Shown: positions 385-55,316 of the stretch, piece by piece
How positions within the stretch are numbered: position 1 is the first letter of the stretch
Layout: every line of letters starts with the position of its first letter
Source: Candidatus Iainarchaeum sp.
GTDB lineage: Archaea > Iainarchaeota > Iainarchaeia > Iainarchaeales > JAXPJC01
Length of the DNA: 64,000 bases
Reading direction: 5' to 3'
NCBI GenBank assembly: GCA_016187745.1
Contig: JACPJC010000005.1
Coordinates: forward strand, 27,220-91,219
Notes under the pieces: generated by a model
Database searches by the model: none
Told to the model about the DNA's origin: nothing
What the model saw: only the letters and a program-made list of their open reading frames with translations
Translations under genes and position numbers: made by a program

Positions 385-488
385 AAGCCCCTTTTCTTTT
401 TGAAAAAGAAAAGGCCCTTGGGTTCAAAAGAAAAACTGCCTTTTCCTATTGAAAATGGAAAGCCCGGGAAAAAGAAAAAAGGTTTCAG
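385..488. repeat. intergenic repeat element, copy A (perfect T-tract palindrome CCTTTTCTTTTTG/AAAAAGAAAAGG, a second AAAAGAAAAA tract and GGTTTCAG)
   Basis: Near-perfect 12-bp palindrome at 389-414, followed by AAAAGAAAAA and AAAAAGAAAAAAGGTTTCAG. Related to the copies at 11174-11241 and 44760-44828. Lies immediately upstream of the nurA ATG (492). Confidence 0.5.
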
Positions 489-491
489 AAA

Positions 492-2221: not shown

Positions 2222-3777
2222 AGTGGATTAAAATGCAGCAGGGCGATCTGGGAACGGTAATTTCAACGCTTGAGGGCCCTTCCCCCGGAAATGTTGATTT
2301 TGTAGTTAATATTCCTGAAATGGTCCTGCACAGGGGGCAGTTTGTTGAGATGTCCTATTCCGAGGGAACGCTCATCGCAATGATTGTGGATTTGCTAAAA
2401 ACAAACCGCTATTTCGAGCGCGCTGATTCTGTGAAGGAATTCGAGGCTTCCGGAAAAAAAATGCTCGATGTTTTCCCAACCGCAGAATGGGAATATCTCA
2501 TTGCAAGGACAAAACCGCTCGGGGTTTTCAGCCCTGATGGGAAAGTAAAGCGCGCAACCTCCCCAATAAGCCCCGGCACGAAAGTAAGGCTTGCGGGGAA
2601 TGAGAAGCTGCATAAATTTTTGGGATTTGATTCTGAGAGCGGCCTGCACATTGGAAATGTAGAATTCCATGACCTTCCGGTAAGCCTGAATCTCTCGAAA
2701 TTGTTCCAGAAGCACCTTGCAATTCTGGCAATGAGCGGCGCGGGAAAGTCGTACCTGGTTTCAGTCCTCATAGAAGAACTGCTCAAAAGGAAAAAGGAAT
2801 CCGGAAGGCCCGCGGCGCTTATTTTCGATGTCCATGGCGAATACACAAATTTCGGGGAGGCAATAACAGATTCAAAGCACGAGGATTATTCCAACAAGAC
2901 AAAAGTTGTAAAGGCGCGCGACATAAGGATAGGGGTTCCGAAGCTCTCAGCTGCAATCCTCAATTCAATAATCCCTGATCTGAGCTCAGCGCAAGTGAGG
3001 GATGTCGCAAGAATCATAGAGCAGTTGCGCAGGAACATGCAGGCAACAGGCCCGTTTGATTTCAGGGACGTGAGGAATGCAATTTCCGCTGATTCGGAAA
3101 TAAAGGACAGCACAAAGGCTGCTCTAATAGGCTGGCTTTCAGGCCTGGAATACCTGAACCTGTTCGCAAGGACTGACGCGCCAAGCATAACTGATTTGAT
3201 TGCGCCCGGGGAACTTACAGTAATTGATTTTTCGGATATTGTGAACCAGCGCAAGAAGCAGATAATTGTGAGCTATTTCCTGCGCAGGCTCTTTGATTCC
3301 AGGAGAAGCAAGCGCATCCCGCCATTTGTTGCTGTAATTGAGGAGGCGCACCAGTTCGCCCCCGCAATGGCAAAAGAGGAAAGCGCAGTCTCAAAGGGGA
3401 TAATTGAAACAATTGCGCGCGAGGGAAGAAAGTTTGGGGCAAGCGTCTGCTTAATTTCCCAAAGGCCGAAAAGGCTCAGCACAACAGCGCTTAGCCAGGC
3501 AAATACGCACATCATACTGCGCATCACAAATCCCTATGACCTGAAGCACATTGGTGAAAGTTCCGAGGGATTGGACCAGCGCAGCCAGGACATGATTTCC
3601 TCGCAGAGAGTAGGAGAAGCGCTAATTGTGGGAGAGGCAACAAATTACCCTGTTTTTGTGAAAATAAGGGAGCGCAAATCCCTCGAATCAAGCCATGAGG
3701 TTCCTCTCGAAAAGGCAGCGCTTGATTTTGAGGCGCGCAAGGAAAAAGCAGGCGAGGAAACCGAGGAGTTTTTATAA
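2218..3777 (+). CDS. herA: HerA-family ASCE ATPase (FtsK/HerA superfamily), NurA partner
   Basis: 519 aa. Walker A LAMSGAGKSYLVSVLIEEL. ISQRP motif (CLISQRPKRLS) of the kind seen in HerA/VirB4-like ATPases. Walker-B-like hydrophobic strand ending in D/E (LTVIDFSD). Adjacent to nurA. Confidence 0.8.
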   Translation: MKWIKMQQGDLGTVISTLEGPSPGNVDFVVNIPEMVLHRGQFVEMSYSEGTLIAMIVDLLKTNRYFERADSVKEFEASGKKMLDVFPTAEWEYLIARTKPLGVFSPDGKVKRATSPISPGTKVRLAGNEKLHKFLGFDSESGLHIGNVEFHDLPVSLNLSKLFQKHLAILAMSGAGKSYLVSVLIEELLKRKKESGRPAALIFDVHGEYTNFGEAITDSKHEDYSNKTKVVKARDIRIGVPKLSAAILNSIIPDLSSAQVRDVARIIEQLRRNMQATGPFDFRDVRNAISADSEIKDSTKAALIGWLSGLEYLNLFARTDAPSITDLIAPGELTVIDFSDIVNQRKKQIIVSYFLRRLFDSRRSKRIPPFVAVIEEAHQFAPAMAKEESAVSKGIIETIAREGRKFGASVCLISQRPKRLSTTALSQANTHIILRITNPYDLKHIGESSEGLDQRSQDMISSQRVGEALIVGEATNYPVFVKIRERKSLESSHEVPLEKAALDFEARKEKAGEETEEFL

Positions 3778-4355: not shown

Positions 4356-4405
4356 ATTATTTTTAGGTTCCCATCATTTTAAATTTATTGCTAGTAGATT
4401 CTGAG

Positions 4406-5413
4406 CTACTCAGCAAGCCTTTTCTTCAGATATGCGATTTTTGGCACCGGCTCGGGGTCTTTTCCATTCAGCAGCGCCAGATAGCAGGAAGCCAGCTCAT
4501 CAATGAAAATCACATAATACATCCTTGCAAGAAGCGAATTTCCCTTTGCAAAAATCTCAATCTGTTTGCCGTAATCCTTCAGGACGTCTTTTGTTATTTC
4601 AAATCTCTTCGCAATTTTCGCATCTTCGTTCCCGGAGCGCAGGAAAACAAAAGCAGTATTTTCAGGAAAAATCTCAGAGTTGATTTCATTGTGGTTCATT
4701 TCAGGAATTTCCTGGAAATGCGCAAGCGTCTTGCTGTTCTCATTAAGCTCGCAAACCCACCTGTATGCTGCAGAATCCATTTCATCGCCTGCATAAATTA
4801 TTGGGAATTTTCCCTTAAGTTCGGCTGCAGCATCCCTTGCAATTTCATCAATTTCATTTCTGCTTTCTTCCAGCAATGAAAGCATCTCATTGTAGCTGTT
4901 CTCCTGATTTTTAATCAAGCCAAGTTTTTCGAATATTGGGATCATTGGAAGCGTAAGGAAAGGAACTGCCATGCGGGGCTGCGGCGCATCCCTTGGAAGG
5001 GCAATTCTATATTTTCCCAAGTCTTTCAACTTTCCGCCAGAAGCAAGCCCAACAACTAGGCAGTTTCTCTTCAGCGCCTCTTCCATGCATGCGAGTGTTT
5101 CCTCAGTATTCCCGGAATAGCTTACAGCAAAAACAAGCGTGTTCTCATCTGCATATTTCGGCAGGGAATAGCTGTGATAAGCCTCTATTGGAATAGCGAG
5201 TTCAGTTTTCAACAAGTTTTTCAATATGTGCCCACCGATTCCGCTTCCGCCCATTCCGCTTACAATAATGTTGCTGATTTTCCTGCCATCATTAATTTCA
5301 AGCCTTCTGCCAAGCTCCAATGCATTTCTGCATTGCTCCGGAAATGTCTTAAGAAAGCCAAGCGCATTGCTCTTGTCAAGCTCTTCGGCAAGTTTTGAAA
5401 AATCAGGCCCCAT
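4406..5413 (-). CDS. pgi: bifunctional phosphoglucose/phosphomannose isomerase (SIS domain, archaeal PGI/PMI type)
   Basis: 335 aa. SIS-domain signatures SGMGGSGIGG and VSYSGNTEET. Size and architecture match the archaeal bifunctional PGI/PMI family. Confidence 0.7.
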   Translation of the reverse strand: MGPDFSKLAEELDKSNALGFLKTFPEQCRNALELGRRLEINDGRKISNIIVSGMGGSGIGGHILKNLLKTELAIPIEAYHSYSLPKYADENTLVFAVSYSGNTEETLACMEEALKRNCLVVGLASGGKLKDLGKYRIALPRDAPQPRMAVPFLTLPMIPIFEKLGLIKNQENSYNEMLSLLEESRNEIDEIARDAAAELKGKFPIIYAGDEMDSAAYRWVCELNENSKTLAHFQEIPEMNHNEINSEIFPENTAFVFLRSGNEDAKIAKRFEITKDVLKDYGKQIEIFAKGNSLLARMYYVIFIDELASCYLALLNGKDPEPVPKIAYLKKRLAE

Positions 5414-11096: not shown

Positions 11097-11168
11097 GGAC
11101 CCATCGGCTAATGGACAGGCCAGACGGCTTCGGACCGTCCAATGGGGGTTCGATTCCCTCTGGGTCCA
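11097..11168 (+). tRNA. tRNA-Arg (anticodon TCG)
   Basis: Cloverleaf folds by hand: acceptor GGACCCA/TGGGTCC, D-stem GGCT/GGCC, anticodon stem GACGG/CCGTC with loop CTTCGGA (anticodon TCG), 4-nt variable loop, T-stem GGGGG/CCCTC with T-loop TTCGATT, discriminator A. CCA is not encoded. Confidence 0.75.
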
Positions 11169-11173
11169 ACCAC

Positions 11174-11241
11174 CAATCCCTTTTCTTTTAGGAAAAGAAA
11201 AGGTCTAGGTTTTACCCCAAAAGAAAAATAGGTTTCAAGTT
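11174..11241. repeat. intergenic repeat element, copy B (CCAATCCCTTTTCTTTTAGGAAAAGAAAAGGTCTAGGTTTTACCCCAAAAGAAAAATAGGTTTCAAGTT)
   Basis: Fills the gap between the tRNA-Arg 3' end and the stop of the convergent minus-strand gene (11257). Carries T-tracts on both strands. Confidence 0.5.
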
Positions 11242-11256
11242 GCCAAAAAGAAAATG

Positions 11257-12570
11257 CTATATGAATTTGTTTTTCCTTAACAGGCCTTCCAGATTTGGCT
11301 TTCCTAATTCCTCCAATTCGTAGCTAACTTCGATTGCAGGCTTATTGAGTTTCAGTATTCTTGCAAGATTCACAGGCGTTGCATCCACAACATAATCGCA
11401 CGGGGTCCTGTTTATTGTTGATTCCAGCTCAGCAACCTGCTTTTTTCCATAGCCGAGCGCAGGCAACACATTGCGCAGATGCTTCCATTTTTTCAATTCC
11501 TTCCTTAATGAGCCGACAGCATACTTATGCGGAGCAATGATTATTGCCTTGTGCTTTTTTGCAACAATAATGCCTGCGCCATAAGCCATGTTCCCATGTG
11601 TAAGCGTAGGGCCATCCTCAACAACCAGGACCTTTTTATTATGCATTTTCCAGGCAAGCGGAGAAATCAATTCCGAATTTGCCTTTACAATCCTTGCATT
11701 TGGATTCACAAGCCTCGCATTTTCAATTATCTCTTTTATTGCCTTTTTCTTTGCGGTATTCATCTTGTTTATTACAATCACATCAGCCATCCTGAAGTTT
11801 GTTTCTCCGGGATGATAAAGCAGCTCGTGCCCCGCCCTGTGCGGATCGGTAACAACAATCAGCAAATCCGGTTTTATGAATGGGAAATCATTATTGCCTC
11901 CATCCCAAATTATTACTTCAGCTTCCTTTTCAGCAGCACGCAGGATTTTTTCATAATCCACTCCTGCATAAACTATTGCGCCCCTTTCAATCAAGGGTTC
12001 ATACTCCTCCATTTCCTCAATTGTGCACTTTTGCCTTTTCAAATCATCAATACGCTCAAACCTCTGGCATCCCTGCAGCAGCAAATTCCCATAAGGCATT
12101 GGATGCCTTATCACAACCGCTTTCTTTCTGTGTGTTTTCAGAATATCAAGGATTCTCCTTGTGGTCTGGCTCTTTCCCGAGCCTGTGCGGACTGCACATA
12201 CAGCAATTACTTTCTTCGTTGATTCCAGCATTGTTTCCTTTGGCCCAAGAAGTGAAAAGCCCGCTCCGCAGGCAAGCACGATGCTCGCCTTGTGCATGAC
12301 CTCTTCATGGCTTACATCAGAATAAGCAAATACAACTTCATGCGCATTGAATTTCTTAATCAATTTTGGCAGTTCTGCTTCAGGATAGATAGGAAGCCCT
12401 TTTTTGTACAATCTGCCGGCAAGTTCTGCAGGATATTTGCGATTTGTAATTTCTGGAATCTGAGTTGCAGTAAAACAAACAACATTATAATTCGGATTAT
12501 TTCTAAATGCTATATTGAAATTGTGGAAATCCCTTCCAGCAGCGCCCATTATTATTACGTTTCTGCGCAT
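11257..12570 (-). CDS. P-loop NTPase with an N-terminal Rossmann-like domain, cyclic 2,3-diphosphoglycerate synthetase-like (CPGS/DUF1611-related)
   Basis: 437 aa. N-terminal IIMGAAGRDF Rossmann-like strand. Walker A AVRTGSGKSQTT. Walker-B-like VIIWDGGNNDFPF. The CPGS name rests on recalled family resemblance and needs an HMM search. Confidence 0.35.
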   Translation of the reverse strand: MRRNVIIMGAAGRDFHNFNIAFRNNPNYNVVCFTATQIPEITNRKYPAELAGRLYKKGLPIYPEAELPKLIKKFNAHEVVFAYSDVSHEEVMHKASIVLACGAGFSLLGPKETMLESTKKVIAVCAVRTGSGKSQTTRRILDILKTHRKKAVVIRHPMPYGNLLLQGCQRFERIDDLKRQKCTIEEMEEYEPLIERGAIVYAGVDYEKILRAAEKEAEVIIWDGGNNDFPFIKPDLLIVVTDPHRAGHELLYHPGETNFRMADVIVINKMNTAKKKAIKEIIENARLVNPNARIVKANSELISPLAWKMHNKKVLVVEDGPTLTHGNMAYGAGIIVAKKHKAIIIAPHKYAVGSLRKELKKWKHLRNVLPALGYGKKQVAELESTINRTPCDYVVDATPVNLARILKLNKPAIEVSYELEELGKPNLEGLLRKNKFI

Positions 12571-12580
12571 TCCTCACTCC

Positions 12581-13963
12581 CTATTCCATAAATTCTTCCT
12601 TTCCCTTGAGATAGCGCGTCAAAAAGCGCCGGAATTCCGCATTCTTCCCGTAAAGCGCCGATATTCCTTTCGCATCCAGAACCCTGCAGCCGGATTTTAT
12701 TGCGCGCTTTATGTCTTTTTTCTCCTTTTTTGCCAATTCCTTTGCATTAACGCAAAGCAGCTTTTTCACATCCGCAAATTCGCGCCTTGTTTCAATCACC
12801 CAGCGCCCTTTCTCAATCCTGGGACCTGAAATTATCCTCCCCTTGTGCGCCGCAATAAATCTTTTTTGGTTTTCCAAATCCTCCGCAAAAGGCCCGATGC
12901 GCCCCATTGTTTTCGGAAGCGCCAATTCCTTAAGCTCGTAAATCAGCGCAATTGTTTTTTTCTCATCGCTCCAGCTGTCTGAGCGCACAACATCAAATTC
13001 ATACTGCTTCAGCTGCACAGAAATCTTCCTCTCAAGCCTTCTCAGTTCGCCCCACATTATGTCCGGCAGGACATTCTTCGGATATGCCAGCTGCAGCGCA
13101 ATTATTTCCTTTTTTGAAAGCATTTGCCTTATTTTCCCAATGCCCCAGCATTTCACAAGCTCTGGAAAGAAAAATTTCTCAGCCGGCTTTTCCAAAAACG
13201 CATTTGCAGCAAGCACCATCCTTTCAAACTGCTCGCGGGAAAGCGCTGCAGCAACATTCCTCCCCTTGTCTATCGGGTCAATTATTATAAGCGCAGAAGC
13301 AGGGAACATTTTTCTCACATCTTTCTCATTCCAATAACCCTCCAAATCAATTACCTTCCCGAAATGCCACTCCGCAATTGCCTTCAGGCAGTCCTCAAAT
13401 TCCCCATATTCCAGAATAAGCAGCTCAATTACATATCCCGGAACGCTTGCAAATTTCAGGTCAGCGCCATAACAGCCGATTCCCTTCATGAACTGGCGCA
13501 GCAATCTTACTTCGCTCCTGTGCCCTTCATTCAGGTTCTTCAGCAGGTATTTTGTATGAAAGGCAGTCCGGTCAACAGCACTTTTCAGTTCCCCTGTGTG
13601 CTCAATCTTATAGCTCGGAACAATCTCAACATCATACCCTTCAACATTTGCGCGAAGGTAAGGATGTTCGGAATACGCCTCAAACCATTTGTATCCCTTA
13701 AGCACCTTCTTTCCGATGCGAAGCCCCTCCTTTACAAATTCCTCCCTTGAGAGATGCTTTGGAAACAAAACAAAAATATCAATGTCCCTGTCGCCTTTAA
13801 GATGGGTGTTCCGCGCAAGAGAGCCGGCCAGCAGGCAATCGACATGCCTGCCCTCCATTGATTTTATCTTCCCAATAAGTTTGTCCGCAAGCGCAATTTC
13901 GCTTGCATACTCCAAGGCGCTTGGGGTTATTTTTGCAAGCACTTTTTGCAGCAGCTTGTCCAT
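12581..13963 (-). CDS. cca: tRNA CCA-adding enzyme (archaeal class I nucleotidyltransferase)
   Basis: 460 aa. Pol-beta-type nucleotidyltransferase motif GSLARNTHLKGDRDIDIFV near the N-terminus. Size matches archaeal CCA enzymes. Confidence 0.8.
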   Translation of the reverse strand: MDKLLQKVLAKITPSALEYASEIALADKLIGKIKSMEGRHVDCLLAGSLARNTHLKGDRDIDIFVLFPKHLSREEFVKEGLRIGKKVLKGYKWFEAYSEHPYLRANVEGYDVEIVPSYKIEHTGELKSAVDRTAFHTKYLLKNLNEGHRSEVRLLRQFMKGIGCYGADLKFASVPGYVIELLILEYGEFEDCLKAIAEWHFGKVIDLEGYWNEKDVRKMFPASALIIIDPIDKGRNVAAALSREQFERMVLAANAFLEKPAEKFFFPELVKCWGIGKIRQMLSKKEIIALQLAYPKNVLPDIMWGELRRLERKISVQLKQYEFDVVRSDSWSDEKKTIALIYELKELALPKTMGRIGPFAEDLENQKRFIAAHKGRIISGPRIEKGRWVIETRREFADVKKLLCVNAKELAKKEKKDIKRAIKSGCRVLDAKGISALYGKNAEFRRFLTRYLKGKEEFME

Positions 13964-14016
13964 GTTAGCAATTATATAGAAAGAGGAATATATTGGTTTT
14001 GTTTAAACAAAACCAA

Positions 14017-14553
14017 CTACTTAAGCATTACTCTCCTTACCACACTATATTCAGGCCCACTCCGCATGAGCTTGCTTTCCATTATGTCAATGCTTTCCAC
14101 TTTAATGTTTGCGGAGTAATTTTCGGCCTTCAATCTTCCAAGCACCTCATCAACTTCCCTTCTTTTTAGCATTTTATTCCTTGCAAGAGTGATATGCGCA
14201 TGGAACCTTTCATCATGGAGACTGAGCGCATCATCAATCATTGCGGAAATGCGCTGAAACTCCCCGCTTCCTTCAGCAATTCCAATCCATATTACGCGCG
14301 CATTGAAATCCCCAATCCCTGAAATGGTTGCATTGAAGCGGGTCTCATTTTCAATAATTTGCATTTTTTCCCCAATTTCCTCCAGCTTTTCATCGCTTAC
14401 ATAACCCAAAAATTTCATTGTTATGTGCAGGTTCTGCATTCCCACAACCTTGCACTTTTCTTGCGGAATTTTGCAACTCAGCCTTTCATAAATCTGCCGC
14501 TTGATTTCCTCAGGCAGATTGACTGCAATGAAAATCCTTCTAAATTCCGCCAT
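14017..14553 (-). CDS. thpR: RNA 2',3'-cyclic phosphodiesterase (2H phosphoesterase, ThpR/LigT family)
   Basis: Two H-x-T-x motifs, HITMKFLG and HAHITLAR, in a protein of about 180 aa. Start taken at MAEFRRIFIAV. Confidence 0.75.
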   Translation of the reverse strand: MAEFRRIFIAVNLPEEIKRQIYERLSCKIPQEKCKVVGMQNLHITMKFLGYVSDEKLEEIGEKMQIIENETRFNATISGIGDFNARVIWIGIAEGSGEFQRISAMIDDALSLHDERFHAHITLARNKMLKRREVDEVLGRLKAENYSANIKVESIDIMESKLMRSGPEYSVVRRVMLK

Positions 14554-14673
14554 ATTCTCACACAAGCCTTAAAATGAAAGTCTTTGTTCCAACATAATTC
14601 TTGGGATATATTCTCACAGGCTTCCATTCTTTTGCCTTTGCCATGACTCTCAGCATCCCGTGATTTTCAGAGC

Positions 14674-14958
14674 TTACATCAATAAACAATTTCCTATTTT
14701 GTTTTTCTTTGCATAATCTGCAATGTCCTTAAGAAATTCTCCAGCCAGATCATGCCCCCTGCGCTTCGGATGCACATACACCCTGGATATGTGCAAGCCG
14801 TATTTGCCTTCCTTGTGGAACAAAGCGAATGAGCCTCCTATCTTGCGTGGCACATTAATTAATGCTGGTTCCGGGAGAGCGTTTGCATGCACAGGCTTTC
14901 CTGAATGTGCAATAATCACATTTCCATATCTTGCATGATTTATTTTCACGCGCCTCAT
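14674..14958 (-). CDS. GNAT-family N-acetyltransferase, apparently truncated after motif A
   Basis: 94 aa. VYVHPKRRGHDLAGEFLKDI fits GNAT motif A (Q/R-x-x-G-x-G/A). The ORF stops where motif B and the C-terminal segment would follow; a +1 frame continues with ENHGMLRVMAKAKEWKPV. Confidence 0.4.
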   Translation of the reverse strand: MRRVKINHARYGNVIIAHSGKPVHANALPEPALINVPRKIGGSFALFHKEGKYGLHISRVYVHPKRRGHDLAGEFLKDIADYAKKNKIGNCLLM

Positions 14959-15563
14959 TCCAGTTTCTCCTTCGCGGCTTTCTCAAGCCTCTTCAAAAGT
15001 TCGTAATTCTTCCTCAGTTTGCTGTTTGCCTCATCCAGTATCTGCTTCATATATTCCCTCTCAATGAGTATTTTCGCGCCCTTTTTTACAGGCAGGCTTA
15101 TGCTTTGAGTGCCAACAAACTCCGCAATGCATTTTCCCTTCTTTGCGACTATTATGCCCCCGCGCTTTACCCCCGCATTGCGCATCACATTTAGCAATGA
15201 ATCCGCATCCCCGAGGCTTTTTGTTCCAATGTGAATTATGAACGGCTCCATCTTGAACCAGAGGGTTCCAGTGCTCTTCGCTTCCAATCCCCTCCATAAT
15301 TCAGCAAATTTAACCGCGCGGTGCCATTTCCTGTGGAAGTAGCTTTCCTCCTTTGTTCCCTTACCATACAATCCCAGAAGCATTATCCTTCCCGCGCACC
15401 CGGATGAAGTGAAAAAATTCTTTGTGGAATTTATGTAATTGCACAAAGAAAGCATTTTTTCATCAGCCTTTCCTTCCCTTACCGCATTTTCCCAGTTTTC
15501 CCTGTTGTGCAGCTTGCTCATCCTCCAGCGCTCATTTTCCGAAAAATCCATAAGCCTCTTCAT
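14955..15563 (-). CDS. taw3: tRNA wybutosine-pathway protein Taw3/TYW3-like (SAM-dependent methyltransferase)
   Basis: 202 aa containing FFTSSGCAGRIML, close to the conserved SSCSGRI motif of the TYW3 family. Size fits. Confidence 0.55.
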   Translation of the reverse strand: MKRLMDFSENERWRMSKLHNRENWENAVREGKADEKMLSLCNYINSTKNFFTSSGCAGRIMLLGLYGKGTKEESYFHRKWHRAVKFAELWRGLEAKSTGTLWFKMEPFIIHIGTKSLGDADSLLNVMRNAGVKRGGIIVAKKGKCIAEFVGTQSISLPVKKGAKILIEREYMKQILDEANSKLRKNYELLKRLEKAAKEKLE

Positions 15564-40344: not shown

Positions 40345-40361
40345 AAAATAAAAAAAAGTTT

Positions 40362-40432
40362 AAGAGGGGGATCAGGATATTTTTTAAAAAAATATACCAT
40401 TTAAGCCTGGTGAGCCTATCCCCCTCTTTTGT
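40362..40432 (+). terminator. hairpin (11-bp inverted repeat AAGAGGGGGAT / ATCCCCCTCTT around an AT palindrome) followed by TTTT, just after topA
   Basis: Arms at 40362-40372 and 40418-40428. Internal palindrome ATATTTTTTAAAAAAATAT. A T-tract follows immediately. Confidence 0.4.
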
Positions 40433-40565
40433 GAATAATTCTAGGTTTTAGATTTATTCCCCCCTTCTGAGTTGTATAACTATTGCATCATATCTTCCTT
40501 ATATAAATTCTTTGGCTATAATTGTGCTGAAATGGATAGCTATTTTAATTTAATTGTTCTGGAAT

Positions 40566-40589: not shown

Positions 40590-41132
40590 ATGCGCGCACC
40601 AAAGCGGATTGGCGATGAAATAAGGCTGAAAATACTGGAAGCGCTGCTCGAGAAGGGAAGCGTTGCCCCCAACATAAGGCAGATACAGAGAAAAACAGGC
40701 TTCCACAAGGCAACAATAAAGGCATCGCTTGATTTCCTCGCGAAGGAAGGCCTGCTCCAGGGCTATGGCCCGAAAATAAATTTCCATTCCCTCGGCTACA
40801 AGCTTGAAACAACAGTTTTGCTGCAGGCTGACATGTCCGAGAAAAAGACCTTTGATGAGCTTGTGGAAAGAATAAAAAAGGATCCGCATATCTATCAGTT
40901 AGCATCAGTAATAGGCTCCGGGAACTGGAACCTGCTTGCAAGGCACATCTACAAGGATGTTGAATCCTACCACAACAACGACCTGAAAAATTACTATGAG
41001 GCAATTCCCGGGATTTTCAAGGTCATAAAGGACAGGCAGATATTCTATGCGACAGAGCCGTACTACAAGAGCGCCTCGCGCACGCGCTCGATAATAGAGC
41101 TTATAAGGCGCTCAAAGGAAGGGAAGGACTGA
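40590..41132 (+). CDS. winged-helix transcriptional regulator with a C-terminal Lrp/RAM-like domain
   Basis: 180 aa. N-terminal HTH (RLKILEALLEKGSVAPNIRQIQRKTGFHKATIKASLDFLAKEGLL). Confidence 0.5.
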   Translation: MRAPKRIGDEIRLKILEALLEKGSVAPNIRQIQRKTGFHKATIKASLDFLAKEGLLQGYGPKINFHSLGYKLETTVLLQADMSEKKTFDELVERIKKDPHIYQLASVIGSGNWNLLARHIYKDVESYHNNDLKNYYEAIPGIFKVIKDRQIFYATEPYYKSASRTRSIIELIRRSKEGKD

Positions 41133-42554: not shown

Positions 42555-44759
42555 ATGGAGCTGGGCAGCATGTTGGCAGGCGATAAAAAGCGCAAGGAAA
42601 TTGTCCTCAGGGTGCAGGACCCTGACCCGAGCCATGTGGGGCGCAATATTGTCACGCTGAGCCGCAAGGCAAAGGAAGAGCTTGAAATTACCTCGGGAGA
42701 CATTGTTGAGATTGAGGCAACCAAAAAAACTGCTGCTGTTGTATGGCCCGCAAGGCCCGAGGACGAGGGCAAGGACATTATAAGGATGGATTCCCTCATA
42801 AGGAGAAATGCCGGAGTTGGGCTTGGAGAAAAGGTAACAATAAGGAAGGCGCACGTTGAGGAAGCAAAAAAGGTTGTTCTGGCCCCAACGCAGGAAGTTA
42901 GGATTATAGCTTCAGGCTATGACAGGATATTAAAGCGCAATTTCATCGGAAGGCCGCTCACAAAAGGCGACAGCGTATGGATAAGCGTCTTCGGCTCCGG
43001 CTTTATTTACATTGTTACTGAAACCTCCCCGCGCGGAATAGTAAGGGTTACCGATTACACGCAGTTCATCCTGAAGGAAGAGCCGGTAAAGGAAGCCGCC
43101 GAAGGAGTCCCGAAGGTTGCCTATGAGGACATTGGGGGCCTGGAAGAGCAGGTCCAGAAAGTAAGGGAAATGATTGAACTGCCAATGCGCCATCCGGAGC
43201 TTTTCAGGCGCTTGGGGATTGACCCCCCTAAAGGCGTTTTATTGCATGGCCCCCCGGGCTGCGGAAAAACGCTCCTTGCAAAGGCAGTTGCAAATGAAAC
43301 CAATGCGCATTTCATTTCCATTTCCGCCCCTGAAGTAATGAGCAAATTTGTGGGGGAGGCGGAAGAGCGCATAAGGCAGCTGTTCAAGGATGCGCAGGAA
43401 AATGCCCCGAGCATAATTTTCATTGACGAGATTGATGCGATTGCCCCAAAGCGCGAAGAGGTAATTGGGGAAGTGGAGAGAAGGGTTGTTGCCCAATTGC
43501 TTGCAGCAATGGACGGGATGGAAGCGCGCGGGAATGTTATTGTGATTGCAGCAACAAACCGCATAAATTCAATTGATGAGGCGCTGCGCAGGCCCGGAAG
43601 GTTTGACAGGGAAATAGAATTCCCGGTTCCTGACAGAAAGGGAAGGAAGGAGGTTCTCCAGATTCACACAAGGGGAATGCCGCTCGCAAAGGATGTTGAC
43701 CTTGACCATTTTGCAAATATTACGCACGGGTTTGTGGGTGCAGACCTCTCCGCGCTCGGGAAAGAGGCCGCAATGAAGGCATTGCGCAGATATCTCCCTG
43801 AAATAAACCTGGAGGATGAAACAATCCCGCAGGAAGTCCTTGAGAAGCTTGAGGTAAACAGGGAAGATTTCATAAACGGCCTTAAGGATGTCCAGCCTTC
43901 TGCGCTCAGGGAAGTTACAATTGAAATCCCGAATGTGAAGTGGGAGGACATTGGCGCACTGGACCATGTGAAAGAGGAACTGCGCCAGGCGGTTGAATGG
44001 CCGCTGCAGAACCCGGAGGCATTCAAGAAATTAGGCATAAAGCCCCCGAAAGGAATTCTGCTTTACGGGCCTCCGGGCTGCGGAAAAACCCTTATTGCAA
44101 AGGCGCTCGCAACTGAAAGCGGGATAAATTTCATTTCAATAAAAGGCCCTGAGCTCCTGAGCATGTATGTCGGGGAAAGCGAGCGCGGGATAAGAAAAGT
44201 CTTCAGGCGCGCAAGGCAAGTGGCCCCTGTAATAGTATTCTTTGATGAAATTGATTCAATTGCAAGCAGGCGCGGCGCACACACTGATTCCGGGGTAACG
44301 GAAAGGGTTGTAAATCAATTGCTTACAGAGCTTGATGGAATAGAAAACCTCAAGGATGTTATTTTTGTTGCCGCAACAAACCGCCCCGATTTGATGGATC
44401 CGGGATTATTGCGCCCGGGTAGGATTGACAAGATAATCAAGATTGACGCGCCCGAGAAAAAGGCAAGGCTTGAAATACTGAGAATACACACAAAGAAAAT
44501 CCCCCTTGACAGGAATGTCCCGCTTGAGGAGCTTGCGGAAAAAACCGAAGGATACAGCGGCGCGGACCTTGAGGGATTGGTAAGGGAAGCCGCGCTGATT
44601 GCGCTTAAGGAAAGCGGAATGAAAGTTGAGAAAGTTGATAAAAAGCACTTTGCGCAGGCAATGCAGAAAATTCTCCCGAGCATAAGCAAGGAAACAACAG
44701 AGGCGTATGACGAATTCAGGAACAGCTATTCCACATACAAGCCGAGCTATGTAGGCTAA
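42555..44759 (+). CDS. cdc48: Cdc48/VCP-like AAA+ ATPase (two AAA domains)
   Basis: N-domain, then D1 ([27 protein letters not shown]) and D2 ([27 protein letters not shown]) with second regions of homology. Confidence 0.9.
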
Positions 44760-44828
44760 CCAATCCTTTCTCTTTTAAAAAAAAGAAAGTCTAGGTGTTA
44801 CCTAAAGAGAAAAAAGGTTCAAGTTTCT
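44760..44828. repeat. intergenic repeat element, copy C (CCAATCCTTTCTCTTTTAAAAAAAAGAAAGTCTAGGTGTTACCTAAAGAGAAAAAAGGTTCAAGTTTCTG)
   Basis: Fills the gap between the cdc48 stop (44759) and the stop of the convergent S2P gene (44831). Compensatory change TTTCTCTTTT / AAAGAGAAAA relative to copy B. Confidence 0.5.
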
Positions 44829-44830
44829 GA

Positions 44831-51905: not shown

Positions 51906-53039
51906 ATGCCTCGCAACATATTTGAGAATGCAGCGCTTGAGGGCGCAATATTCAAGAATGAAAGTTATCTGTATCCGGAATTCGTTCCCGAGCGCCTCCC
52001 GCACCGCGAGGCGCAGATTGATGCGCTTGTTTACTGCTTCTCCCCGATAGCAAAAGGCGCAAAGCCGCACAATGTCTTTGTCCATGGGAAAACCGGAACA
52101 GGGAAAACCGTAACAGTGAAATATGTGATGAATGAGCTGCAGGAGCACACTGACCGCGCGAAAGCGCTTTACATAAACTGCTTTGAGTTTTCCTCGCGCT
52201 CTTCTGTCCTTTCGGAAGTCGCAAACTTCATTGGCGCTGTTGTTCCAAGGCGCGGGCTCTCAACTGATGAGATATACTCAAAACTTCTTGAAAGCGCCAG
52301 GCGCCTGCAATTTACCCCCATAATCATCCTTGATGAGGCGGACCAGCTCTCAGTTCAGGGAAAGGAGGATGCCTCAAAGCTGCTTTACGATTTGCTGCGC
52401 ATAATAGAATATGAAAAAATCCGCTTCGGGATTGCGCTCATTTCAAATTCCGGGGAATTCCTTGCAAAGCTTGATGCAAGAGTAAGGAGCTCCCTTGCCG
52501 AGGAGCGCATTGAATTCGAGCCCTATTCCCCCATTCAATTGAAGGAAATCCTGAGGGAGCGCGCGGAATTTGCATTCCTTCCAAATGCGCTTGAGAATGA
52601 GGTTATAAATGTCGCTGCGGCGCACGCTGCAAAATTGGGGGGAGACTGCAGGATTGCGATTGAAAGTTTATGGAAAGCGGGAAGGATTGCGGAAAAGGAG
52701 GGCGCAGGGAAACTCACATTAAAGCACCTGCGCAGCGCCTTTGAGCTTATTGAAAGCTCCCCGGGAAGAAAGCCCGCGAATTTCCTTTCCGGAACAGAAA
52801 AGGCAATGCTCAAAATAATCCTGCAGGAAAAGCAGCTCAATTCAGGTGAACTGTTCAGGAAATACAATGAAAGCGCAGGGGAAAAGCTCAGCGAGAGGCG
52901 CCTGCGCGAAGTTGCAACCGGGCTTGAAAAAAAGCAGATAATTTCCTCAGAGGGAATAAACCTTCCGGAAAGGGGCAGGACCCGGAGGATTTCGCTGAAG
53001 ATTTCCCGGCGCGAGCTCGCGGAAAAATTAGGCAAATGA
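51906..53039 (+). CDS. cdc6: Orc1/Cdc6 replication initiator
   Basis: AAA+ Walker A VHGKTGTGKTVTV. Walker B IIILDEADQL. C-terminal winged helix. PEFVPERLPHREAQIDAL is typical of Orc1/Cdc6. Confidence 0.85.
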   Translation: MPRNIFENAALEGAIFKNESYLYPEFVPERLPHREAQIDALVYCFSPIAKGAKPHNVFVHGKTGTGKTVTVKYVMNELQEHTDRAKALYINCFEFSSRSSVLSEVANFIGAVVPRRGLSTDEIYSKLLESARRLQFTPIIILDEADQLSVQGKEDASKLLYDLLRIIEYEKIRFGIALISNSGEFLAKLDARVRSSLAEERIEFEPYSPIQLKEILRERAEFAFLPNALENEVINVAAAHAAKLGGDCRIAIESLWKAGRIAEKEGAGKLTLKHLRSAFELIESSPGRKPANFLSGTEKAMLKIILQEKQLNSGELFRKYNESAGEKLSERRLREVATGLEKKQIISSEGINLPERGRTRRISLKISRRELAEKLGK

Positions 53040-54948: not shown

Positions 54949-55316
54949 ATATTGACAATTGTAAAAAAATATTAATAAATCTTTCTATTAGTTCTGTAAA
55001 ATAATAGGAATTCTTATAAATCAGAATGAAGGAAGATGTGTATGGTGGAATAATGAATAAATGGTTAAAATCCTTGACAAAAGAGAGAATAGAAAAAGAT
55101 GTGAGAGGCGAACGCTGCTCATCTCCGCTTGAAAGGCAGTTGAGGGGCGGGCATGATTGCCCCTATCCTTAAGGTATGCGTATGCAAGAGAAAAATCCTT
55201 GGTTGCTTAAAAGGCGCAGAGAAAGGCAAAAAGAATCAATACAAAAGCGCTATGCCTCGGCATCCGACCAATGCAGGCTTCATACGATTTGACTACAAAA
55301 CTCCCGGCTGATTTAA

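Follow-up and report, generated by a model that had tools for sequence, protein, structure and literature searches.

A dispersed A/T-rich spacer element with a mirrored third tract at tRNA and gene boundaries in Candidatus Iainarchaeum and other archaea

The stretch of DNA considered here, 64,000 nucleotides of Candidatus Iainarchaeum sp. (assembly GCA_016187745.1, contig JACPJC010000005.1, positions 27,220 to 91,219 of the forward strand) and referred to throughout as the window, is compact archaeal DNA of ~46% GC in which a Pfam scan of ~45 open reading frames (ORFs) places nurA-herA-rad50, topA, cdc48 and genes for a CCA-adding enzyme and Cdc6/Orc1. Our interest is in an intergenic element that is present in full at two of its gene junctions. 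The first, copy B (11172-11241, plus strand), starts 3 nt past the discriminator base of tRNA-Arg(TCG) (11097-11168, plus strand, found by ARAGORN and by the Rfam tRNA model with 58 bits) and ends 15 nt short of the stop codon (11257-11259) of a convergent 437-aa gene (11257-12570, minus strand). The second, copy C (44759-44830, plus strand), occupies the entire 71-nt spacer between cdc48 (42555-44759, plus strand) and a convergent M50-peptidase gene (stop codon 44831-44833, minus strand), with the final A of the cdc48 stop codon TAA (44757-44759) serving as base 1 of the element. Both copies contain CCAATCC, a T-rich/A-rich palindrome, an exact TCTAGGT(T/G)TTACC core, a purine tract and GGTT(T)CAAGTT, so that the description given in an earlier note on this DNA is exact in its sequence parts and also correct in placing the copies after tRNA-Arg and at the cdc48 stop, each ending before a convergent stop. 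A covariance model of the main CCAATCC/TCTAGGT family, denoted R1, matches copy B with 76 bits (E 3e-16, span 11171-11235) and copy C with 67 bits (E 4e-14, span 44758-44821), scores that are partly circular as B and C are among the 15 related copies of the training set; the best remaining score in the window is 18.9 bits, for the hairpin only of a third, composite copy (A) discussed below. The similarity of B and C is far beyond chance and they are full-length members of one element. Four Logan assemblies contain the cdc48 locus with an identical copy C, and the element is also present at the orthologous junction of a further locus, L032, with flanks that are 85-87% identical (handles beginning with L denote loci fetched in the scans described below).

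In copy B the element opens with ACC (11172-11174), the 5' strand of a short stem, P1, whose partner GGT lies at 11208-11210, as indicated by P1 covariation in relatives and by the minimum-energy fold. This leads into AATC (11175-11178), the 5' half of an internal loop that faces TCTA at 11204-11207 as part of a conserved RATC/TCTA pair, and then into the P2 hairpin, CCTTTTCTTTT-AGG-AAAAGAAAAGG (11179-11203), with 11 perfect pairs that are supported by covariation. The core, TCTAGGTTTTACC (11204-11216), comprises in turn the loop half TCTA, the P1 3' strand GGT, a TTT linker and ACC, the 5' strand of a second small stem, P3. It is followed by a third tract, AAAAGAAAAA (11219-11228), which under the family-wide rule described below is the mirror of the P2 purine arm, and by the right end, GGTTTCAAGTT (11231-11241), where a GGT is the sole possible P3 partner of the ACC; P3 is weak here, with 2-3 bp. 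Copy C has the same arrangement, with P2 as CTTTCTCTTTT-AA-AAAAAAGAAAG (44766-44789), the core as TCTAGGTGTTACC (44790-44802; TCTA loop half, GGT with partner ACC at 44759-44761, linker and ACC) and the third tract as AAAGAGAAAAAA (44804-44815), which lies in parallel register with T3CTCT4 of the 5' arm and matches it. Its P2 carries one C.A mismatch (44772 vs 44783) that becomes G.U on the opposite strand and that is absent from the ortholog in L032, where P2 is perfect. T-runs are present on both strands, with T4CT4 on plus and T5CT4 and T4CT4 on minus in B, and T3CTCT4 on plus and T6CTCT3 and T3CT8 on minus in C. The earlier note had pointed to a compensatory change in copy C (TTTCTCTTTT / AAAGAGAAAA) relative to B; the change is real, but it is with the middle purine tract, and not the third, that the T-tract regularly forms Watson-Crick pairs. 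Pairing of the first tract with the third was rejected as a family rule, as third tracts that are asymmetric follow a parallel and not an antiparallel register; it is the minimum-energy fold of copy C, whose tracts are nearly symmetric and cannot discriminate.

Each unit, taken as a single strand, forms a long interrupted hairpin, followed by a short linker and a purine tract around which a small GC stem often closes. Within the hairpin the ACC of CCAATCC and the GGT of TCTAGGT pair as P1, the T/A palindrome is P2, a polypyrimidine:polypurine stem, and a conserved 4x4 internal loop (AATC/TCTA) lies between the two; P3 is a second hairpin opened by ACC(C) with the downstream purine tract as its loop. 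In an alignment of 15 sequences 97.2% of the P1 and P2 cells are paired, a level reached in 0/500 shuffles and well above the 44-67% of controls in which the register was slid, and changes on both sides are observed in 8/12 pairs. Compensatory P1 types, read from copies in the flanks of loci of the GW2011_AR5 (AR5) lineage, include ACC:GGT, ATA:TAT, ATC:GAT, GTC:GAC and ACG:CGT, the last taken directly from the sequences of L029 whose row is misaligned in the covariation count; RATC/TCTA is retained in all two-hairpin copies. In the case of P3, stem variants include ACTCC:GGAGT, TCGCC:GGCGA, CCCCC:GGGGG and ACCCT:AGGGT, and the summed pairs number 68 vs 54.7 +/- 3.6 when partners are permuted (0/2000, in what is a crude permutation), with at most 2-3 bp in B and C. 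When intron-bearing pre-tRNAs are folded for minimum energy, P1, the loop and P2 emerge, and P1 of copy B is predicted in the same way. All three stems thus covary, in keeping with the selection on pairing that had been proposed for the element. The conserved core, for which a protein-binding site or a small RNA had been suggested, is structural as judged from the covariation, providing the P1 3' strand, half of the internal loop and the P3 5' strand, and neither of these other explanations is necessary. A local GGT-NTT-ACC mini-hairpin within the core was considered and rejected, as variants break it yet maintain pairing with the left flank. No Rfam 15 family other than tRNA reaches its gathering threshold, and relaxed scans return generic hairpin noise of <=22 bits; there is no UGAUGA of a C/D box on either strand of any copy, no CRISPR-like spacing, and no K-turn, given the absence of a bulge and the symmetric 4x4 loop, with tandem G.A present on the opposite strand.

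The third tract follows a rule that is distinct from base pairing. When the P2 5' arm is T(p)C T(q), and the 3' arm A(q)G A(p), one finds A(p)G A(q) downstream, that is, the mirror of the 3' arm and neither a direct copy of it nor the complement of the 5' arm. The relation is seen for (3,4), (4,2), (2,3), (3,2), (4,3), (5,3), (3,6) and (4,5), as well as for T3CTCT4 and T3CT2CT4. It was evaluated with 96 strand-specific records of asymmetric perfect hairpins, using the 45 nt downstream of each; some of the records are orthologs and 12 different tract types contribute. An exact mirror tract is found in 35/96 records, as opposed to an exact direct copy in 2/96, and with permuted downstream regions the mean was 8.0 and the maximum 18, vs 31 observed, a value reached in 0/5000 permutations. 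Intrastrand triplex repeats are built from a hairpin and a third, mirrored tract, with class II corresponding to the purine motif (the strand as written) and class IV to the pyrimidine motif (the opposite strand). The P2 hairpin has the form expected of such repeats, being perfect over 11-12 bp in B and in the first unit of copy A and having 1 mismatch in C, while the mirror is apparent at the level of the family only, B being symmetric, and hence uninformative, and C nearly so. We know of no protein-binding or replication logic that yields mirror repeats and for this reason read the combination of a hairpin and a mirrored homopurine tract as suggesting the design of an intrastrand triple helix, in an arrangement that would be class II on the written strand and class IV, with U.A-U and C+.G-C triples, on the opposite strand.

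Copy A (390-491, plus strand) is of a different make. It combines a palindrome that is perfect over 12 bp with a degenerate second hairpin and a right end, AAAAAGAAAAAAGGTTTCAG, that ends 4 nt before the nurA ATG at 492. The first unit (390-435) has P2 as CCTTTTCTTTTT-G-AAAAAGAAAAGG (390-414), a turn CCCTTGGG (415-422) and a mirror tract AAAAGAAAAA (426-435); the second (438-463) is an imperfect hairpin, GCCTTTTCCTATTGAAAATGGAAAGC, with 77% identity to the first, and the right end, AAAAAGAAAAAAGGTTTCAGAAA (469-491), is that of copy B, abuts the nurA start and includes a Shine-Dalgarno-like AGGT. Over the hairpin arms and the following 21 nt (CCCTTGGGTTCAAAAGAAAAA) the first unit is identical to a copy in a tRNA intron (L034, 1569, minus strand) and differs at one base from another (L024, 908, minus strand), with different hairpin loops. 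The palindrome, second hairpin and right end noted previously are real, but copy A lacks both CCAATCC and the TCTAGGT core and R1 aligns to its hairpin only. As judged from these parts it is not a full member but a composite belonging to a sister subfamily, which is marked by a CCC-TT-GGG turn and is otherwise found in tRNA introns. A fourth, partial relative that had been placed after topA at 40438-40451 did not survive: the string exists, with 2 mismatches to the core, and 1.5 such matches are expected by chance. There is no R1 match at this site and the adjoining hairpin is a different, GC-rich inverted repeat. This repeat, 10 bp in length (AGAGGGGGAT...ATCCCCCTCT, 40355-40432, around an AT palindrome, ATATTTTTTAAAAAAATAT), has no model match, is unrelated to the element and may be either a terminator or, ahead of the helix-turn-helix gene at 40590, an operator.

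In order to establish how widely the element occurs two pattern scans were made, both with CCAATCC and TCTAGGT fixed, so that variation at these positions is judged only from extra copies in fetched flanks. A scan of one genome per species gave 6 loci, 3 of which are bacterial chance matches rejected by R1, with the true loci in three archaeal metagenome-assembled genomes (MAGs), GW2011_AR5 (which we take to be a member of the Aenigmarchaeota), Aenigmatarchaeota RIFCSPLOWO2_01_FULL_48_10 and SMAG_U8133; the genome of the window itself is not one of the representatives, no locus with both B and C was returned, and the counts are not genome-wide. A scan of JGI metagenomes gave 25 loci, 24 of them true. 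The two scans together comprise 24 distinct sequences, and over 198 kb of fetched loci R1 yields 38 matches, with 0 in 4 chance loci. The wider search that the earlier note had suggested thus adds three other archaeal MAGs and 24 metagenome loci, in all of which the element is at a gene, tRNA or intron boundary. On the reading set out below the family, with units of 55-75 nt, is lineage-wide in a clade of small-genome DPANN, Aenigmarchaeota-related archaea.

The contexts differ between lineages. Among genomes like that of the window 7/11 non-redundant contexts are linked to tRNA, all in sense. The main family is located inside tRNA-Ala, tRNA-Val and tRNA-Arg genes, directly after position 37 (L016, L030, L034/L022), with inserts of 80-90 nt that the Rfam tRNA model spans and in genes that ARAGORN misses, and four contexts are 0-3 nt after a tRNA (copy B, L014, L019/L033 and L024), one of these being the spacer between two tandem tRNA-Pro genes. 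The sister subfamily is present in five more tRNA introns (Gly, Leu-like and three Pro). As for mobile bulge-helix-bulge (BHB) introns, the same sequence is found in introns of different tRNA genes; the inserts fit the 37/38 boundary, there is no clear 3-4-3 BHB in the folds, and the copies outside of tRNAs are without such a context. Copies also follow stop codons (C and L032), and in four cases a sense copy precedes a start codon, its right end (purine tract and AGGT/AGGG) 3-8 nt before the ATG (copy A at nurA, L011 at an SMC-like gene, L019 and L033). In the AR5-like lineage, by contrast, 10/10 two-hairpin copies are inverted, with the left end 0-1 nt from the ATG of an opposite-strand gene (rpl6, rps3, rps4e, rps17, a PAC2-like gene and others), and with ATATTA at a fixed 13-18 nt past the model end, the position of a TATA-like box ~24-26 nt upstream of the element (beyond P3) in the direction of the gene. 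We infer that in these cases the element would constitute the whole 5' leader. Many tRNA genes in L016, L019, L024, L030, L033 and L034 have introns of 45-90 nt that are built of these modules; none of the intron-bearing tRNAs in the fetched loci was found by ARAGORN, while the Rfam tRNA model did find them, and the tRNA counts of such MAGs are probably underestimated.

These orientations bear on the strand that might be active as RNA. According to the literature only the pyrimidine motif is reported for RNA triplexes and the purine motif does not form. The opposite strand supplies the pyrimidine motif, and in addition converts the internal loop, as read from the sequence, into tandem G.A/A.G followed by A-U and U.U, and the C.A mismatches of copy C and L033 into G.U. 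In the AR5 lineage this strand corresponds to the 5' leader, and at B and C to the 3' trailers of the minus-strand genes for the 437-aa protein and the M50 peptidase. One could therefore imagine a host RNA end module in which the opposite-strand RNA forms a U.A-U / C+.G-C triple helix, capping mRNA 5' leaders and convergent-gene 3' trailers so as to block exonucleases or gate the adjacent ribosome-binding site, with P1 ending 0-1 nt before the ATG in all ten leader copies. We consider such a module possible but on balance doubtful, since all 8 non-redundant tRNA-intron and all 4 tRNA-trailer or spacer contexts, and the sense-type modules on stop codons in ribosomal-protein operons, are transcribed in the other orientation, and occupancy is not conserved between syntenic genomes. 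A T.G mismatch in L005 (6781) favors the written strand, and calling the strand from wobble pairs was abandoned, with two C.A mismatches against one T.G not being decisive. A structure at the DNA level would permit both triplex motifs.

The bidirectional terminator originally put forward as the simplest reading can be weighed against the same set of contexts. Here polymerase arriving from either side would stop at the T-runs and the hairpin would protect the 3' ends. Archaeal intrinsic terminators consist of oligo-T, with no need of a hairpin, mirror tract or conserved loop, and are not expected inside tRNA genes. Copies B and C are like such terminators in having T-runs directly downstream of a tRNA or gene, at 7-10 nt after the tRNA or the stop, and they fill spacers between convergent genes with T-runs on both strands; plain T-runs follow other gene ends in the window, and sense-type modules of the AR5 lineage are on or just after stop codons. 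At B and C termination in both directions is possible. Unlike terminators, however, other copies are placed where transcription must continue, in sense inside tRNA-Ala, tRNA-Val and tRNA-Arg genes with runs of up to T6, between the two tandem tRNA-Pro genes, and, inverted, as the leader that separates the start codon of ribosomal-protein genes from a TATA-like box, and P1, P3 and the mirror tract are not needed for termination. A strong terminator would be harmful in tRNA introns, a tandem-tRNA spacer and leaders, which weakens this explanation, and as an account of the element in general we regard a dedicated terminator as rather unlikely.

Two further explanations fare less well. The tRNA-linked, in-sense contexts of the window-like lineage would be accounted for by a small RNA gene whose product is released by tRNA processing, through intron excision or RNase Z cleavage of the trailer, with the core as a guide or protein-binding sequence. 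The core is indeed identical across MAGs, though the search pattern itself fixed 12/13 core positions, and it varies freely where P1 covaries (TCTCTATCACACC, TCTAGATTTCACC, CCTAGACTATCACT), so that it is not a guide. The lack of C/D boxes and of an Rfam match, and the many copies that are away from tRNAs or inverted, make a small RNA improbable. More improbable still, to the point that we give it very little credence, is an operator in duplex DNA to which a lineage-specific regulator would bind, or a promoter with the purine tract as B recognition element (BRE) or TATA box. The element is palindromic and near start codons, but a mirror repeat is not equivalent for a protein that binds the duplex, the neighboring genes are unrelated and copies lie inside introns. 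The assignment of the purine tract as TATA/BRE was rejected given its inconsistent distance to the ATG (-12 to -23 at nurA, -10 to -22 in L019 and -20 to -29 in L011).

A comparison of related genomes points to turnover of the element. L009 and L027 have syntenic ribosomal-protein clusters, with 70-84% nucleotide identity, and occupancy varies from junction to junction: between rpl22 and rps3 L009 has two modules and L027, in which the genes overlap, none; between rpl24 and rps4e there is no module in L009 and one in L027; between SUI1 and Rpp29 there is one in L009 and none in L027; and between Rpp29 and rps17 L009 has one type and L027 a different type. In L033 the purine tract is followed by an inserted copy of another subfamily that its ortholog L019 does not have. 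Copies that are identical over 56 nt stand behind tRNA-Arg (copy B), tRNA-Ala (L014) and tRNA-Pro (L019), and a fourth, near-identical copy (~48 nt identical) is behind another tRNA-Pro (L024). Tandem arrays and truncated or rebuilt copies occur as well. From the differing occupancy and the near-identical units in unrelated contexts we infer that it behaves like a small mobile element of the kind of the repetitive extragenic palindromic (REP) sequences. Several of the altered copies deserve mention in their own right. At L009 2948-2975 there is a collapsed copy that retains a TATA-like box 21 nt from the ATG and GAAGGGATTGGTAATG and that has no hairpins; at L029 ~2560-2630 (minus strand) the P2 apex of a rebuilt copy is replaced by a GACGCC-TTT-GGCGTC hairpin; and at L014 1212-1300 a tandem array consists of 3-4 second-hairpin units alone (TTACCC, purine tract, ..GTTTCAAG), with purine tracts that are all different and none of which matches the single upstream hairpin.

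The reading that we prefer, with a probability of roughly 0.5, is that B and C, as full members, and A, as a composite, belong to a family of structured spacer repeats with the anatomy of an intrastrand triplex, evolutionarily dynamic and tolerated or used at RNA boundaries. The family would turn over in the manner of a miniature mobile or gene-converting repeat, of the kind of REP and bacterial interspersed mosaic elements (BIME), PIT/BoxC, or miniature inverted-repeat transposable elements, and would persist only where extra sequence is tolerated, that is, in tRNA introns, tRNA 3' trailers and tRNA-tRNA spacers, in the stretch from promoter to start codon, and in spacers between convergent genes, with the self-contained fold keeping the repeat from disturbing its neighbors. 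At B and C the T-runs on both strands and the stable hairpin probably mark a place where both transcripts end and are protected, and copy A may be the nurA leader and the source of its AGGT ribosome-binding motif; both of these proposals are less secure than that of the family as such.

A number of observations weigh against this reading. Concerning the triple helix, the tRNA-linked copies are all transcribed in the purine-motif sense, which is the motif reported not to form in RNA, formation of P3 would compete with the triplex, and, with B symmetric, C nearly so and P3 limited to 2-3 bp, the copies in the window inherit the triplex argument from the family. The folding energies of B, C and A show no gain over those of shuffled sequences (z of -0.7 to +0.2), since shuffled sequence with A-runs and T-runs folds too, and the structure therefore rests on covariation. 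Concerning mobility, there are no terminal inverted repeats beyond a weak similarity of the ends, which are loosely inverted (CCAATCCCTTTTCTTTT vs the reverse complement of AAAAGAAAA.TAGGTTTCAAG), no target-site duplication is visible at 24 distinct insert sites, no transposase, including the Y1 domain, was found among the ~45 window ORFs compared with Pfam, and there are 0 matches to the element in viral contigs, a result that also led us to reject a link to viruses or plasmids. Several copies are, moreover, maintained at orthologous sites in genomes that are 77-87% identical (C/L032, L015/L021, L019/L033 and the rpl6 leaders), a retention that could equally mean host function, and nearly all copies of the family have kept their structure, not the usual picture for selfish DNA in decay.

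Intrastrand-triplex repeats as such are already known, in bacteria and, as a GC-rich analogue, in Methanomicrobiaceae. The BoxC/PIT/TMECO repeats of E. coli and other bacteria are dispersed intergenic sequences of pyrimidine arm, loop, purine arm, loop and purine arm, of class II (Hoyne & Maher 2000, 2002; Holder et al. 2015, PMC4666352), that vary in copy number between related strains, have no agreed function and have been linked to genome rearrangement (PMC4666352). The present element has the same build of three tracts on one strand, but is A/T-rich and archaeal whereas the bacterial repeats are G/C-rich (CCCTCNCCC...) with plain loops of 3-6 nt. Unlike in TMECO, its first loop is 1-4 nt and its second, of 7-16 nt, is structured through the P1 helix or the CCC-TT-GGG turn, and it further differs from the bacterial repeats in the additional hairpin P3, in its location in tRNA introns and leaders and in a mirror relation that is backed by covariation over 12 tract types. 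The G-rich/C-rich intergenic repeats of Methanomicrobiaceae, which fold as an antiparallel intramolecular triplex in vitro (PMC8044849), resemble the element in being archaeal, intergenic, near gene starts and ends, and composed of a hairpin and a purine third strand; they are G-quadruplex (G4)-forming, GC-rich and from another phylum, with no reported association with tRNA introns or leaders. The transposed BHB introns of Thermoproteales, in which very similar introns in different tRNAs point to spread at the level of DNA by a mechanism that is not known (Fujishima et al. 2010, reviewed in PMC4090602), are similar in that they, too, reside in tRNAs of different identity. In contrast to these introns the present unit occurs also outside of tRNAs and in both orientations, and makes up only part of the intron.

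REP and BIME sequences are short imperfect palindromes at gene junctions, single, in tandem or in mixed orientation, that differ between relatives and for which roles in mRNA stabilization or termination have been proposed. The element shares with them the short junction palindromes and their variability among relatives. It is unlike them in having (A)CC-RATC as 5' flank and no tetranucleotide of the GT(A/G)G or GTAG type, and in that no gene resembling RAYT is seen among the ~45 ORFs of the window; REPs, for their part, lack a third, mirrored strand and are not known from tRNA introns. The ENE of PAN RNA and the 3' end of MALAT1 protect an RNA end by U.A-U triples with interspersed C+.G-C, triples that the opposite-strand RNA of the element could form in the same way, with the difference that in the ENE an A-rich 3' tail is gripped by the two U-rich strands of an internal loop and that here a 5' pyrimidine strand would read one arm of a hairpin. 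Neither Rfam nor the literature searched yielded a description of this A/T-rich form with two hairpins and an association with tRNA introns.

If correct, the reading proposed here would tie together three subjects that are usually kept separate in archaea, namely dispersed intergenic repeats, how tRNA introns arise and spread, and how mRNA leaders are built in the very compact DPANN genomes, whose hosts are uncultured and whose RNA biology is little known. The element is a lineage marker and accounts for many orphan spacers and for the long tRNA introns that break tRNA gene finders. A more ambitious version, which must be viewed as tentative, would have the units be natural intramolecular triplex modules under selection, acting as RNA end caps that resist exonucleases or as pH- or Mg-sensitive gates of ribosome-binding sites, spreading as DNA and creating or filling tRNA introns, with the opposite-strand RNA forming the whole 5' leader of many mRNAs, including those for ribosomal proteins, and convergent 3' trailers. 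Were this to hold they would be the first archaeal triple-helix modules backed by three-way covariation. Were the mirror rule to reflect a real triple helix, it would provide a natural covariation data set for triplex formation of a sort hitherto missing for the bacterial PIT/BoxC repeats, the function of which has been unexplained since the 1990s.

Some features of the window and of the fetched loci are of separate interest. On the minus strand at 11257-15563, beside tRNA-Arg and copy B, is a run of genes concerned with tRNA or RNA ends, with a CCA-adding enzyme (12581-13963), a LigT-like 2',5'-ligase/phosphoesterase (14017-14565) and TYW3 (14955-15563), all on the minus strand; the 437-aa gene that abuts copy B has a weak match to CobW-type GTPases only. 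The Cdc6/Orc1 gene (51906-53039; Pfam Cdc6_lid, AAA) is at 51.9 kb, 7 kb from copy C, and the stretch of lowest GC in the window (0.39, 54-56 kb) holds a 204-nt AT-rich spacer (54949-55152). Gene and spacer may together constitute a candidate replication-origin region. The element itself was rejected as an origin box, being unlike origin recognition box (ORB) repeats and having copies in ribosomal-protein operons of other genomes.

After sense-type modules there is a coding-like string, ATT AAY GGT GGN nnn CTG GCN TTC GCN ('NGG(S/E)LAFA..'), located at L027 ~1020-1056, L008 7430-7480, L009 ~290-330 and L029 ~4400-4430. It has no canonical start, its third codon positions vary and in some loci the would-be ORF amounts to 12-18 codons. 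In L018 (11137-11233, minus strand) the element gives way directly downstream to a tandem run of three ~31-nt units (..TCAGGATTACCCTAAAACTG..), beyond which come long-range stems rich in GC, and a unit similar to those of the run is present in L026 at ~1960-2030. They have no Rfam match and may represent an undescribed structured RNA.

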